Source of the DNA: a virus
Direction: 5' to 3' (one strand)
Length of the DNA: 64,000 nucleotides
IMG/VR virus record: IMGVR_UViG_3300003886_000002
Within the stretch, counting starts at the first letter, position 1. Each line of letters begins with the position of its first letter. Position numbers and translations under genes: made by a program. The notes under the pieces were generated by a model, which worked only from the letters and a program-made list of their open reading frames with translations, ran no database searches and was not told the DNA's origin. This document shows, piece after piece, positions 1,197 to 5,814 of this stretch.

Positions 1197-1488
1197 CGAA
1201 TGGCTGTTGGCTGCACACCTCCGACACGAACACGGATGGTCGTGGAAGCGTCTCTTGGCAGCGTTTGGAAGCAACCGGGCTACCACTCAACGAGACATCA
1301 GGCACAGAATCGAATACGCCGCAGAACGAATGAGGTACACCGAGTGGACCAAGACCAATGAGTACTGGTGCGGGCTGGTGGTCGACGGCACGGTGATCTG
1401 CAATCACGGTTCGTGGGATGACTGCGCACGACAGCACGACACGATGACACCGCTCTACAAGCGCTCAGGAGGCAACGACGATGAGTGA
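1189..1488 (+). CDS. hypothetical protein
   Basis: ORF track; coupled at both ends; ends GGNDDE*. Confidence 0.65.
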   Translation: MSDEWLLAAHLRHEHGWSWKRLLAAFGSNRATTQRDIRHRIEYAAERMRYTEWTKTNEYWCGLVVDGTVICNHGSWDDCARQHDTMTPLYKRSGGNDDE

Positions 1489-1732
1489 CCTAATCGACTC
1501 TCTGCGTGTTGATGAGACGTGTGGCGACGATGACTGCATCGACCCCGGCCACGGGGTCTGCATGAGGTGGTGGGCCGCCGACGAGATCGAGCGGCTCCGG
1601 GCACTCGTGCGATCAGTGCCGTCCTGCATGTCAGGCGGTGAGCGGGATCTGTGGTCACGGCGGGCCGACCCACAATACGACGCTGCGCTGGCCGAAGCGC
1701 GGGACATCGCCGGGGGTGGTGACGATGAGTGA
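1481..1732 (+). CDS. small coiled-coil phage protein (ADEIERLR motif)
   Basis: ORF track; coupled; ends GGGDDE*. Confidence 0.65.
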   Translation: MSDLIDSLRVDETCGDDDCIDPGHGVCMRWWAADEIERLRALVRSVPSCMSGGERDLWSRRADPQYDAALAEARDIAGGGDDE

Positions 1733-2099
1733 CGGCATGATTCGCTACGACCACAGTCGGTGGATCGCAGAGGACGCGACGTTGCCCCATGTTTTGATGC
1801 GCCCGCGTTTGTTCATCGACGGGAACCAATGGTGTGCCCTGTATGGCAGCGGCGTGCAGGGCGGGGTGGCCGGGTTCGGTAGTTCGCCGCGAGATGCGAT
1901 GTGCGATTTCGACAGCAAGTGGTCGAAGCGACTGAGCGGAGGTGGCGACTCTCCAGAAACGAGACACAGTGCAACCGCGGCCCTGTTGCAGCAGGCTGCC
2001 ATGGATATCAGGCGGCTTGGCCTTGCGATGGAAGCGACAATGCTCGGCTACGCAAGTCTCACCGGTTGTGGGGATGATGGGAAGGATGCTGCGACGTGA
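1725..2099 (+). CDS. conserved phage hypothetical protein
   Basis: ATGAGTGA overlap at 1725; LFIDGNQWCALYG...GVAGFGSSP motif that I recognise from uncharacterised phage proteins. Confidence 0.6.
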   Translation: MSDGMIRYDHSRWIAEDATLPHVLMRPRLFIDGNQWCALYGSGVQGGVAGFGSSPRDAMCDFDSKWSKRLSGGGDSPETRHSATAALLQQAAMDIRRLGLAMEATMLGYASLTGCGDDGKDAAT

Positions 2100-2413
2100 A
2101 CCGGTACGTCACCCTCCATCCAGACGAGGCGAGAGCAATCGCGGACGCTCTGCCAGACAATGACGACGTGTGGTCCGTGTATCTTCGTCGCCTTGCTGAC
2201 TCCGCCGGATACTGGCGGCTCTGCGACGCCTGCGGGATCTCTACGACGCCTGAGGGAACGGTGATACCGGGGCCGCTGTTCGTCGTGGCCGCGATCCGGC
2301 TGTTCTGGGGCTACGGGGTGCTGCCAGTTGTAGACCATATTGACTTTGACCAAGACGAGTATCCGCTTGTTATCGTCGCAACAGGACCCGACCAGGATGA
2401 GACGACGACATGA
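2096..2413 (+). CDS. hypothetical protein
   Basis: GTGA overlap; CDAC motif. Confidence 0.55.
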   Translation: MNRYVTLHPDEARAIADALPDNDDVWSVYLRRLADSAGYWRLCDACGISTTPEGTVIPGPLFVVAAIRLFWGYGVLPVVDHIDFDQDEYPLVIVATGPDQDETTT

Positions 2414-2706
2414 GTGACTTTAGTCATGATCATCCGTGGCGTCCACACGCGATACACACTGATTGTGTCTGTAAAGACGACCGCTGGCCCTGTGAATTCC
2501 ATTCCGGTTTCGCTGAGGCATCTGGGTATGGGGAGAATGTTGCGAAGTGGTTGCAAACTCAACGCGATGAGGCGCGACGCGACGCAGTGTGGTGTTGGGG
2601 TCGCCTTGACCCTGATGTGCGGGCAGAAGCGTTATCTGCGGAGGCGCGGATACGGGTAATCCGTATCCGCAGTTGGGTTACAGCAGACAAGGACCCCACT
2701 CCATGA
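2410..2706 (+). CDS. hypothetical protein
   Basis: ATGA overlap; CVC...WPC motif. Confidence 0.55.
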   Translation: MSDFSHDHPWRPHAIHTDCVCKDDRWPCEFHSGFAEASGYGENVAKWLQTQRDEARRDAVWCWGRLDPDVRAEALSAEARIRVIRIRSWVTADKDPTP

Positions 2707-4691
2707 GCACCACAACAGAAATAGGTGATTGCTTGAAAGCGCTGGCTGAAGTGGCCGACGACACCTACGACTCGATCGTCACCGATCCGCCATACGGAAT
2801 CTCGTTCATGGGGAAGGGATGGGACCACGGGGTGCCCGGTGAGGAGTTCTGGACCGAGATCCTGCGGGTCGCCAAGCCCGGTGCTCACCTGCTCGCCTTC
2901 GGCGGCACCCGGACCCACCATAGGCTCATGGTGGCGATCGAAGACTCTGGATGGGAGATCCGTGACTGCATGATGTGGCTGTACGGTCAGGGATTCCCGA
3001 AGTCGCACAACGTGAGCAAGGCGATCGATAAGGCTACTGGGGCTGAGCGTGAAGTCGTTGGGGTCGATGAATCTAGGGCCGCTCGGCTAGTGAATCAGAC
3101 GGGCGAGTATGCGACGGCGGCTGGATGGGCAGCAGGGAACCGGAGTGCTGAGATAACTGCACCGGCCACCCCTGAGGCACATCAGTGGGACGGCTGGGGG
3201 ACTGCGCTGAAGCCCGCCTGGGAAATCGTGATTGCAGCGCAGAAGCCAGGGGACTGGTCTAAGGTAGATGGGAGCCTAACTGCTTTGGAGGCTGAGTTGT
3301 GGTCGATGTTGTCTGCGAGCGGTGTGGAACTTCCTTCGCCGTCAAGCCCTCCCGTCTCAGGCGAGGGAATGTTCGATGGTGCTCGATGGAGTGCAGAGCA
3401 GCCGACCAATACACAGGTCGGTTCGTTCGATCAGATGGGTACGTTTTCGTACGACGATGTGACGGCTATATGCTGGAACACCGTGCGGTCATGGAGGATC
3501 ACGTTGGCCGCTCTCTCCGAACTGATGAGCACGTCCACCATCGCAACGGAGACAAGTCAGACAATCGACTGGGCAACCTTGTGGTCCTTGATCGAGGAGA
3601 TCACACCCGAGAGCATCATCCAGGCCGTAACGAGTCGCGGTGGGTCGAGGTCTTCTGTCTCAACTGTGGCTCTCGCTTTCAGCGACGTGGCTATGAGGCT
3701 GAGCGCCATCCTCACGCTTTCTGTTCGCGGTCCTGCTACATCGCCGGAGCGCACGCCACTCCCGGCAGAGGGCGTTGACAGTCCCGCTTGGGAGCCGATC
3801 ATCGTGGCTCGCAAGCCATTCTCGGGCACCGTGGCGGCGAATGTGTTGGAGCACGGCACAGGTGCTATCAACATCGACGCCAGCCGGATCGGGTATGTGT
3901 CAGAGTCGGAGATGGATGCGGTGAAGCGTCGGTCCGGCGGGGGATCTTCGAGTGCTGGATACGCTGCGGGTAGCGGAGACACGTTCCATCAAAGCTGGAA
4001 AGATCGTGACGCTGGCCCATCGCAAACGGGTCGTTTCCCTGCGAACCTTGTGCTGAGTCATACGCCTGAGTGTCGAGATGTCGGCACATCATCGGAGGTC
4101 GTCGGTGGCGGGGCTGGGATGAGTGACACGGGTGAAGCATCGGCGTTGCTTGGCGGGGGTGGCTATGAGAAGGGTGATGGCTTCGAGGGCCGATCGGTCG
4201 AGACCGTGGTGTGGGAATGCTCGCCTGAGTGCCCGGTACGCCAGTTGGACGAACAGACAGGTACTCTCACGAGCGGCAAGCCAGGCAAACGTGGAAAGAA
4301 AGGGGAGATCAACTCGTCAGCAGCGTATGGAGCAGAGTCCCGTAAGGCAGGTGGCCCGATGACAGGGTTTGGGGATTCGGGTGGGGCTTCCCGCTTTTTT
4401 TACACAGCCAAGGCGTCGAAGAAGGAACGCAACGAAGGTTTGCCAGAAGGCATGGTCAACAAGCATCCGACTGTGAAGCCGATTGCCCTCATGCGCTACC
4501 TCGTTCGTATGGTGACTCCACCGGGCGGCACGGTGCTCGATCCGTTCATGGGGTCAGGCACGACAGGAGTCGCGGCTATCCGTGAGGGGTTTGATTTCGT
4601 TGGCATCGACAATGATGCTGAGTCAGTTGAGACGGCCAACGCAAGACTCAAACATGAACAAAAGGGGACTTCGGGGCCAACCTTGTTTTGA
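2703..4691 (+). CDS. DNA amino-methyltransferase (N6-A/N4-C, beta-class motif order) with 190-codon in-frame insertion
   Basis: IGDCL, VTDPPYG (motif IV), GFPKS, HPTVKPIALM, VLDPFMGSGTTG (motif I); ATGA overlap at 2703. Confidence 0.93.
   Translation: MSTTTEIGDCLKALAEVADDTYDSIVTDPPYGISFMGKGWDHGVPGEEFWTEILRVAKPGAHLLAFGGTRTHHRLMVAIEDSGWEIRDCMMWLYGQGFPKSHNVSKAIDKATGAEREVVGVDESRAARLVNQTGEYATAAGWAAGNRSAEITAPATPEAHQWDGWGTALKPAWEIVIAAQKPGDWSKVDGSLTALEAELWSMLSASGVELPSPSSPPVSGEGMFDGARWSAEQPTNTQVGSFDQMGTFSYDDVTAICWNTVRSWRITLAALSELMSTSTIATETSQTIDWATLWSLIEEITPESIIQAVTSRGGSRSSVSTVALAFSDVAMRLSAILTLSVRGPATSPERTPLPAEGVDSPAWEPIIVARKPFSGTVAANVLEHGTGAINIDASRIGYVSESEMDAVKRRSGGGSSSAGYAAGSGDTFHQSWKDRDAGPSQTGRFPANLVLSHTPECRDVGTSSEVVGGGAGMSDTGEASALLGGGGYEKGDGFEGRSVETVVWECSPECPVRQLDEQTGTLTSGKPGKRGKKGEINSSAAYGAESRKAGGPMTGFGDSGGASRFFYTAKASKKERNEGLPEGMVNKHPTVKPIALMRYLVRMVTPPGGTVLDPFMGSGTTGVAAIREGFDFVGIDNDAESVETANARLKHEQKGTSGPTLF
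3213..3782 (+). mobile_element. 570-bp in-frame insertion in the methyltransferase carrying an out-of-frame HNH gene
   Basis: Target peptide duplicated: KPAWEIVIAAQKP at 3210-3248 and SPAWEPIIVARKP at 3780-3818; no stop codon in the MTase frame; no intein termini. Confidence 0.75.
3299..3778 (+). CDS. HNH homing endonuclease, overprinted in a different frame
   Basis: GGAGG 3287-3291 then GTG 3299; EHRAVME...EHVHHRNGDKSDNRLGNL...H; N- and C-terminal CxxC...CSxxC zinc fingers. Confidence 0.9.
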   Translation: MVDVVCERCGTSFAVKPSRLRRGNVRWCSMECRAADQYTGRFVRSDGYVFVRRCDGYMLEHRAVMEDHVGRSLRTDEHVHHRNGDKSDNRLGNLVVLDRGDHTREHHPGRNESRWVEVFCLNCGSRFQRRGYEAERHPHAFCSRSCYIAGAHATPGRGR

Positions 4692-4751
4692 TCTACCCAT
4701 CTGGGGCTGCGACACGTCCACTACTACAAAAACACCTATAAGGGGTGATCT

Positions 4752-5171
4752 ATGAATAGACAAAGAGTATGGAAATGGGCCGTAGCCATAACCCTGGTTG
4801 CGGCAGCGTGTGTCCCGAACACGGACGACAACAATCCTCCGCCTATAGAGAGAAGTACAGACACCAGACCCATACAGAAGCCTGTAACATCTCAACCACA
4901 GTTACCTGTAGTAACACGTACAGATTTATACATTAAGGTGATACGCGAAGAGTACCCTTTGCAAACCTTTGGAGTAGATGACGATTCGCTTGTAGCCATT
5001 GGTAAAGGTTGGTGTGACATCGCATCCGTGTCTGTAACGGGAGAAGTATTCTGGGAGACAACCGTTTCGATTGTATTCGATGTGGACCCAAACCAAGCAG
5101 AGTTTTACGGTTTCACAGTTGGCGCAGCCTTGTCCGCTTTCTGCCCAGAATACACTGAGTTTGTTCCATAA
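4752..5171 (+). CDS. putative lipoprotein, DUF732-like
   Basis: Signal peptide with lipobox VAAAC; DDDSLVAIGKGWCD...GAALSAFCPEY pattern. Confidence 0.7.
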   Translation: MNRQRVWKWAVAITLVAAACVPNTDDNNPPPIERSTDTRPIQKPVTSQPQLPVVTRTDLYIKVIREEYPLQTFGVDDDSLVAIGKGWCDIASVSVTGEVFWETTVSIVFDVDPNQAEFYGFTVGAALSAFCPEYTEFVP

Positions 5172-5238
5172 AACCAGGTTTGATGCATGCCCATAGAGAC
5201 GTCCTCAGATATTTCTGGCATACATTTGCAGATAACGC

Positions 5239-5814
5239 ATGCACGTTGCACAGCACTGTGGAATCGCCCAACAGTGTTTGATAGCCTCAGGGCTATCAGG
5301 CGGGATGAGCAGAAGGATATGTGAAATGGGTGAATGCGAAAAACGGGTTTGGACTATAGAAATTGAGTTTGTAGGGACTGAAGACGAAATGGCCACTTTC
5401 TCGAAGTGGATACTAGACGATTCCCCAGGGGTAACAAACGGACTGCGCACGTGGGGGATTGAAGAAATATCGGGACACGTCTATTTAGGTAAAGATACAC
5501 AGGTACTAGGATCACCCGTAATCCCCCCGCGGTCTTTCAACCGGATATGTGACACCGCAGGAGATACAAGCTCCGACTACACCATTTCTGTCTATGGAGT
5601 AACCGGTCATAGGGGGAGGAACGAAACGAATGTGTATGTACGTGTTACCACCAGTAAAGTCATGAGAGCCGTTAAATTCATTTACGTAAACGGCAGATTC
5701 CACCATGCAATGCATACATCAAGTGAGATAGGGAAACTAGAAGCCCCTGACCCTTTGCAACGCATAAGAACCCTTCAGGGTGGGCTTCGTGTCATAGCGG
5801 GCCAGGTGGAGTAG
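5239..5814 (+). CDS. hypothetical protein (start uncertain)
   Basis: ORF track; fills the gap between neighbours. Confidence 0.5.
   Translation: MHVAQHCGIAQQCLIASGLSGGMSRRICEMGECEKRVWTIEIEFVGTEDEMATFSKWILDDSPGVTNGLRTWGIEEISGHVYLGKDTQVLGSPVIPPRSFNRICDTAGDTSSDYTISVYGVTGHRGRNETNVYVRVTTSKVMRAVKFIYVNGRFHHAMHTSSEIGKLEAPDPLQRIRTLQGGLRVIAGQVE

Follow-up and report, generated by a model that had tools for sequence, protein, structure and literature searches.

The locus considered here lies in a 64,000-nucleotide (nt) stretch of viral DNA (IMG/VR record IMGVR_UViG_3300003886_000002; the whole stretch that was analyzed is referred to as the window) and comprises a gene for a beta-class N6/N4 DNA methyltransferase (MTase), a mobile insert lying in frame within that gene and, nested in the insert in another reading frame, a gene for an HNH homing-type endonuclease (Table 1). 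The MTase open reading frame (ORF) matches PF01555 (E 4.6e-29), its catalytic motifs are intact in the beta-class order DPPY ... FxGSGTT, and it continues through the insert without a stop, as the initial annotation had claimed. The second claim made there, that a complete HNH gene with its own GGAGG occupies another frame of the block, is likewise borne out, the nested ORF matching PF13392 (HNH_3) with an E value of 1.3e-8 and 14 PHROG HNH endonuclease families with a best E value of 1.2e-18.

Table 1. Features of the invaded methylase gene, by position in the window
Feature	Position	Strand	Remarks
Beta-class N6/N4 DNA MTase, host gene	2703-4691	+	662 aa, read through the insert; PF01555
MTase motif DPPY	2784-2795	+	near N terminus
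Mobile insert	3213-3782	+	570 nt, 190 codons (MTase codons 171-360), stop-free in the MTase frame
Motif copy 1, PAWEIVIAAQKP	3213-3248	+	element-borne, outside the HNH ORF, coding in a single frame
Glu174, invariant residue of copy 1	3222-3224	+	conservation in invaded homologs
Linker	3249-3298	+	translated in the MTase frame only; holds the HNH ribosome-binding site and the TGA in the HNH frame
Shine-Dalgarno (SD) sequence of the HNH gene, GGAGG	3287-3291	+	separated by 7 nt from the GTG start (3299)
TGA in the HNH frame	3293-3295	+	in the linker, upstream of the GTG at 3299
HNH homing-type endonuclease gene	3299-3778	+	159 aa, from GTG to TGA, in frame +2 relative to the MTase
Motif copy 2, PAWEPIIVARKP	3783-3818	+	native copy of the host gene, immediately 3' of the insert
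MTase motif FMGSGTT	from 4545	+	near C terminus

Alignment with insertion-free homologs, which had been proposed in the initial annotation, identifies the block as an insertion, since it occurs in frame in 95 of the 120 closest MTase homologs but not in the other 25. In the phages Dumbo and Burton, which lack it, ALKP runs straight into AFEPIVVARKP, and in the same protein alignment (A1) the insert directly follows ..WGTALKP in the window, ShiLan, MISSy, Bipolar, Mantra and Cr-LKS3. At the DNA level, alignment of MISSy with Dumbo gives a clean 606-nt insertion at the same point, which defines the empty site; in distant blastn comparisons phage ShiLan matches the interior of the insert of the window, and some of the mycobacteriophage methylases that cover the region have ~600 additional bases there whereas others do not. 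The boundaries in the window are ambiguous by ~5 nt, with CCCGC beginning both ends. The peptide at the start of the insert (copy 1, PAWEIVIAAQKP) and that immediately following the insert (copy 2, PAWEPIIVARKP) share 8 of their 12 residues, with 23 of 36 nt identical at the DNA level; the flanking duplication initially described is thus real, although the pattern given for it, PAWE.I..A.KP, was one position off and should read PAWE..I.A.KP.

The initial annotation had also seen neither intein ends nor an intron signal, and the searches agree. No Pfam or PHROG family matches the in-frame insert peptide (codons 171-360), and a cmscan search of positions 2600-4800 against Rfam 15 (E<=10) returned no intron family, only three weak and irrelevant matches. 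With respect to inteins, no Hint domain was matched in Pfam or PHROG, and the peptide starts with Pro or Ala and finishes in Val-Asp, so that of the intein hallmarks only the +1 Ser fits in the window; this MTase carries neither an intein nor a LAGLIDADG insert.

The predicted HNH protein has an HNH core (EHVHH..N..DN..N..H..EH) flanked by two Cys4 zinc ribbons, one N-terminal and one C-terminal, and in the HNH alignment (A2) every Cys, His and Asn is invariant; an HNH profile search turned up no related solved structure. Its closest published counterpart in arrangement is the ShiLan domain, a hidden out-of-frame HNH endonuclease found in the DNA methylases of mycobacteriophages, i.e. ShiLan gp65, MISSy gp100, Bipolar gp76 and Mantra gp64 (PMC9957025, PMC11855218). 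The likeness to this element, suggested in the initial annotation, extends to the PF01555 host, the site after ..WGTALKP, the +2 frame, a homologous zinc ribbon-HNH-zinc ribbon protein (53% identical to that of ShiLan), an HNH stop within the last 4 nt of the insert (TGAC in the window, TAAC in the mycobacteriophages), some 12 in-frame residues at the start of the insert that mimic those after it, and a stop-free host frame with neither intron nor intein signature. The window differs in that its insert is 570 nt rather than 606 nt, that its 159-residue HNH protein lacks a 10-residue loop after the first zinc ribbon, and that its host is another, uncharacterized phage of ~53% GC, the exact protein of which is recorded on a 158-kb contig as well. 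On these comparisons, the window element is a divergent member of the published ShiLan family, inserted at the same site.

The nearest relatives of the window HNH are in the Cylindrospermopsis phage Cr-LKS3 (65% identity, the best match) and in ~60 IMG/VR and metagenome-assembled genome (MAG) loci, the range being 58-65%. They agree with the window element in site, frame and motif duplication, and likewise have an M-V-x-V-V-C-E start after TTGGAGG. All the HNH ORFs compared (window, mycobacteriophages and Cr-LKS3) are in frame +2 and reach ..TPGRGR at the 3' junction, but those of the Cr-LKS3 type extend 5-11 nt into the native motif copy and end in ..GRGRKAEP, whereas the window HNH stops before the native copy, as in the mycobacteriophages, its TGAC (3776-3779) being followed by AGT CCC (Ser-Pro).

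Evidence that the methylase frame is actively kept open comes from the family as a whole. We surveyed 65 loci with a complete HNH ORF flanked in frame +1 by both methylase halves, and found 64 to have no MTase-frame stop in the interval that begins 99 nt upstream of the HNH start and ends 36 nt beyond the HNH stop. The sole exception, locus L012, has a stop at 2972, in the single-coding linker just before the HNH SD, which may be due to decay of that methylase or to an error in sequencing. The chance of an open frame was estimated from within-gene synonymous-codon shuffles of the HNH ORF, with near-duplicates removed. The MTase frame is open in every one of the 45 embedded HNH genes of the non-redundant set (12.2 expected), the third frame is open in none of the 45, and the product of the per-gene probabilities is ~1e-41; the pattern holds over a GC range of 0.29-0.68. 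Among free-standing HNH relatives, the number open (2/28) is close to that expected (1.3). These two relatives (2971-3532 in locus L070 and 2906-3661 in locus L075) are open in the +1 frame throughout, and may be nested in a different host gene.

The manner in which stops are avoided can be read from the codons of the nuclease. For a stop to arise in the MTase frame, the HNH gene must have NTA followed by a purine or NTG followed by A. Wherever a Leu or Val codon precedes an A-initial codon in the embedded HNH genes, it is NTY (201 of 201; NTG or NTA in 0/201), compared with 81 of 144 in the free-standing genes, and NTA before G never occurs in the embedded ones. The avoidance extends to the protein sequence, in that Met followed by an A-initial codon is found in 0 of 94 cases in embedded genes versus 12 of 69 in free-standing ones. 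Across the family, these data make it clear, insofar as sequence comparison can, that the open host frame is kept by selection on codon context.

A comparison of selection in the two frames, also proposed initially, gave a more asymmetric result. In pairs that are 90-97% identical, substitutions per site at HNH codon positions 1, 2 and 3 are 0.057, 0.019 and 0.141, and the HNH protein is therefore under purifying selection. The MTase frame in the overlap behaves like the third frame, their respective identities being 0.848 versus 0.817, 0.674 versus 0.637 and 0.396 versus 0.401 at successive divergence levels. Thus, only the HNH frame is conserved as protein in the overlap, with the MTase frame merely being kept stop-free. 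The comparative data (64/65 and 45/45) hence lend strong support to the proposal of the initial annotation that the host gene remains translatable because the element is open in both frames, but the term 'dual coding' holds in a limited sense only.

Outside the overlap, the duplicated motif shows a different type of constraint. Copy 1 lies wholly inside the inserted DNA, as seen in the comparison of MISSy with Dumbo, and is thus carried by the element; copy 2 fits the uninvaded consensus P-A-W-E-P-I-I-V/L-A-R-K-P, the Glu of which is present in 28 of 28 uninvaded genes. Among 91 invaded homologs, copy 1 retains P1 and E4 in all 91, A9 in 87, K11 in 89 and P12 in 88, with P5 and R10 being mostly replaced. 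Copy 2 keeps P5, A9, R10, K11 and P12 in at least 84 of the 91, and its Glu in only 45, the alternatives being Asp (24), Arg (10), Cys (4) and others. On this evidence, the two copies show complementary decay, and the conservation data favor copy 1 as the source of the Glu. At the conserved residues of copy 1 every synonymous codon is found (26 GAA and 10 GAG for Glu; four Pro and four Ala codons), which implies selection at the protein level and hence both that the insert is translated in the MTase frame and that copy 1 matters to the protein. The copies within one element are slightly more alike (0.51 identical) than copies with shuffled partners (0.455), the observed value being reached in 0 of 2000 shuffles, although relatedness of the sequences inflates this test. 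Pfam matches to the N-terminal half (with or without copy 1) and to copy 2 plus the C-terminal half stopped short of the duplicated motif.

Structure prediction with AlphaFold2 (AF2) gives an MTase core that aligns over model residues 1-655 to solved methyltransferases, notably M.BceJIV (9c3s; Z 25.8, 227 residues, root-mean-square deviation (rmsd) 4.0) and CcrM (6pbd; Z 25.5, 213 residues, rmsd 2.3). In the run made with an alignment of invaded and uninvaded homologs, copy 1 forms a core beta-strand (173-180) with a predicted local distance difference test score (pLDDT) of ~80 and copy 2 is disordered; in the run made with invaded homologs only, copy 2 forms the strand (363-370) and copy 1 is disordered. 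Both runs place the same three long helices in the insert (185-207, 250-277 and 318-340), with low to middling confidence. Evidently, either copy of the motif can be modeled into the core slot, and the models cannot decide between them. A sequence search of solved structures made for the motif region gave alignments to the DPPY end and the C-terminal motifs alone.

The nuclease start deserves comment because it bears on how the nested gene may be expressed. The window GTG lies 86 nt into the insert, those first 86 nt being outside the HNH ORF, and an earlier start is excluded because the TGA in the linker closes the HNH frame. In every HNH member examined the start lies 4-6 codons before the first Cys. 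It is preceded by TTGGAGG plus 7 nt in the window and Cr-LKS3, and by CTGGAGG plus 4 nt in four mycobacteriophages, such that a GTG with GGAGG 4 nt upstream is present in ShiLan, MISSy, Bipolar and Mantra. Upstream of the HNH start, 25 of 34 non-redundant members show an SD-like motif, which is GGAGG itself in 17, and a conserved 'LE' dipeptide of the MTase frame is this SD read as codons. The published model of the ShiLan HNH gene starts at a GTG 18 nt into the insert, with no ribosome-binding site, and leaderless initiation was proposed (PMC11855218). That model cannot hold for MISSy and Bipolar, because beyond the published GTG the HNH frame is interrupted by a TGA (at ~2516-2518 in locus L002 and ~1923-1925 in locus L005, respectively), and such a start is impossible in the window because of the linker TGA. 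On sequence grounds the published leaderless start is thus doubtful, and we read the SD-linked start as correcting the likely start of the published gene model rather than as ground for excluding the window from the family. The presence of GGAGG at ideal spacing in the window points to ordinary internal initiation on the methylase mRNA as the probable route, rather than to leaderless translation.

Other translational routes were considered and rejected. A programmed -1 frameshift fusing the MTase N terminus to the HNH protein is blocked by the linker TGA, which closes the HNH frame and is not followed by a slippery heptamer. Ribosomal bypass between the motif copies, as in T4 gene 60, is implausible over 570 nt and needless, the frame being open. 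Reinitiation after the HNH stop to give a separate C-terminal MTase fragment finds no in-frame start near 3776-3800 outside the motif.

The nested element is widespread. The HNH profile search found at least 338 relatives in IMG/VR, of which 80 were kept, as well as 16 in genome contigs; the related loci derive from IMG/VR contigs, a cyanophage, an actinobacterial genome and a Betaproteobacteria MAG. In Cr-LKS3 (OM373202.1), the gene annotated as 'DNA methylase' g59 (1426-3276 of locus L004) carries the element, with an unannotated 162-aa HNH ORF (1947-2435) running 11 nt into the native motif copy. The element is also present in bacterial assemblies, i.e. Kribbella qitaiheensis (NZ_JBHSKE010000077.1, locus L090) and the Betaproteobacteria MAG (locus L088), where it presumably sits in prophages. 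In all these genomes, the nested nuclease gene was missed by gene callers and annotators. A free-standing HNH relative of 45% identity, closed in the +1 frame, is found on a 289 kb IMG/VR contig (2791-3495 of locus L055) between two methylase-like genes (905-2815 and 3801-5534), an arrangement that could resemble the ancestral, non-nested state.

Many pairs of loci combine HNH identities of 0.9-0.99 with methylase flank identities of 0.3-0.7, a contrast that is probably somewhat overstated, the flanks having been compared over 100-aa windows that include variable stretches. HNH identity correlates poorly with flank identity (0.11 and 0.49). This pattern is as would be expected for horizontal spread, and incongruence between the element and its host gene has been published for actinophages (PMC9957025), the published survey being limited to actinobacteriophages.

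Taken together, the results make it probable that the insert is a homing-type HNH cassette located in the most conserved motif of the methylase (..WGTALKP/AWEPIIVARKP.., the slash marking the insertion point) and that it is tolerated without splicing, the methylase being translated straight through it. The nuclease would cut insert-free alleles at the conserved site, with repair copying the cassette in, i.e. homing. Within the cassette, the choice of HNH codons, and even of neighboring residues, prevents stops in the methylase frame, leaving the MTase-frame peptide in the overlap as a freely drifting, stop-free spacer. The element-borne copy of the motif may restore the interrupted structural element right after ..ALKP and supply the invariant Glu, with the ~175 residues beyond it perhaps forming a loop on the surface that precedes the native ARKPL..GTVAANV segment. 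The methylase would then stay functional without either RNA or protein splicing. A more specific proposal, which we advance tentatively and to which we give slightly less than an even chance, is that the cassette is 'self-complementing', i.e. that it cuts and inserts at the best-conserved stretch of the gene but brings a spare, protein-selected copy of the 12-residue motif it interrupts. In such a protein, copy 1 would provide the Glu and the strand contiguous with ..ALKP, copy 2 would provide the ARKPL..GTVAANV continuation, and the remainder would be a stop-free spacer kept by the codon choice of the nuclease, which would constitute a third way, besides introns and inteins, in which a homing endonuclease can reside within an essential motif.

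Several points weigh against the interpretation as a homing cassette that is simply read through. For the window alone, 22% of synonymous shuffles of the HNH ORF are stop-free in the MTase frame. The window element has no close relative, the nearest HNH being 65% identical, so recent mobility cannot be shown for it, and the overstatement of the flank contrast noted above applies to the family more generally. Nine of the 34 HNH family members have no obvious SD. The absence of splicing is argued from open-frame selection together with protein-level selection on copy 1. Finally, the two AF2 runs disagree as to which motif copy fills the core strand, and their mean pLDDT is only 62-65.

It may be that the insert has been domesticated and no longer homes, its ~190 residues and/or the nuclease serving the phage, for example as a dimerization or regulatory arm or in excluding competing phages. 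Such a role would accommodate the age and wide occurrence of the arrangement (95 of the 120 closest homologs), the recurrence of the same three long helices in both AF2 runs, the selection still acting on both motif copies and the lack of a near-identical relative of the window element. We nonetheless consider it unlikely: the overlapped peptide has no conservation beyond that imposed by the HNH frame, and the patchy distribution of the element, with HNH identity far above flank identity in many pairs, indicates continuing transfer (see also PMC9957025).

An intron is less probable still. HNH genes are common in phage group I introns, and the insert is similar at its 5' end to the 3' exon, a possible guide-sequence signature that was noted in PMC11855218; the insert might thus be a self-splicing intron of an unrecognized class with an HNH ORF, its open frame being incidental or protecting the unspliced precursor. 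However, in addition to the negative Rfam result, only 86 nt lie outside the HNH ORF, and efficient splicing would require neither stop-free frames in 64 of 65 loci nor full avoidance of NTG before A and of NTA before a purine. The conservation of copy 1 is moreover at the level of protein rather than RNA, third positions varying freely, and we regard this possibility as highly improbable.

Inactivation of the methylase by the insertion, leaving a pseudogene with a frame open by chance, could be entertained for the window in isolation, given the 22% of open shuffles, and the relative with a stop in its linker (L012) might be seen in the same light. It is difficult to reconcile with the joint probability of the family-wide open frame, with flanking catalytic motifs that are invariant in 95 invaded MTase genes, or with protein-level selection on copy 1, and its probability is accordingly very slight. 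Removal of the in-frame peptide after translation, as a non-canonical intein or otherwise, is the least credible alternative, since, although the peptide is inserted in frame in a conserved motif as inteins are, and is followed by Ser in the window and by Thr or Ser in the mycobacteriophages, it matches no Hint or intein family, begins with Pro or Ala, ends in Val-Asp rather than His-Asn, is predicted by AF2 to form long helices instead of a Hint fold, and evolves like a noncoding frame, which is incompatible with a catalytic splicing domain.

To our knowledge, homing endonuclease genes have been thought to survive within coding sequences only by means of a ribozyme or a protein-splicing domain. 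Elements of the ShiLan type suggest a third solution, and the homing cassette proposed here is instructive when set beside other such systems. Hidden HNH genes of the Pacc40 gp60 type and the out-of-frame endonucleases of non-canonical inteins are alike in that a homing endonuclease is overprinted on an open host ORF (PMC11855218; bioRxiv 10.1101/2025.01.02.630785), but they differ in host site and endonuclease lineage; in the non-canonical inteins, the host-frame peptide is a functional splicing domain, whereas in the window it appears to be a drifting spacer. The HNH enzymes of group I introns (such as I-HmuI of phage SPO1) and free-standing phage homing endonucleases share with the window element the HNH_3 family, a highly conserved coding target and a patchy distribution. 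Their hosts are rescued by RNA splicing or by the position of the endonuclease between genes; the window element, by contrast, has no ribozyme, and its host would be rescued by read-through and the duplicated motif.

The category itself has been known since 2023-2025, and the published ShiLan work rests on ~10 nearly identical mycobacteriophage copies (PMC9957025, PMC11855218), to which the window adds a divergent member. New relative to these papers are the selection for an open frame and its codon mechanism, the unconstrained nature of the spacer and the corrected nuclease start, together with the suggestion that the element is tolerated because it brings a replacement for the motif that it interrupts. 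The locus is also a clear case from nature of overprinting where the sole demand on one of the frames is that it remain free of stops.

With regard to the surroundings of the insert, the MTase ATG and the TGA of an upstream 98-aa ORF (2410-2706) overlap as ATGA (2703-2706), and the two genes are probably translationally coupled. A megablast search of 50,697 phage records gave no near-identical match for the MTase gene or for positions 1-25000 of the window. Among sequencing runs, none was listed as containing the MTase gene of the window, and for the mycobacteriophage element the listing gave four runs with word shares of 0.05-0.06, none of them of RNA. Compared with its mycobacteriophage and cyanophage homologs, the MTase has ~60 extra residues in its variable (target-recognition) region, encoded by 4056-4247, with Cys pairs (..PEC.., ..WECSPEC..) and two low-confidence strands in the AF2 model. 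The GC content is 0.60-0.63 over the first 4 kb of the window, i.e. over an array of small genes and the methylase, and ~0.52-0.54 through most of the remainder, with a second GC-rich patch at 24-26 kb.

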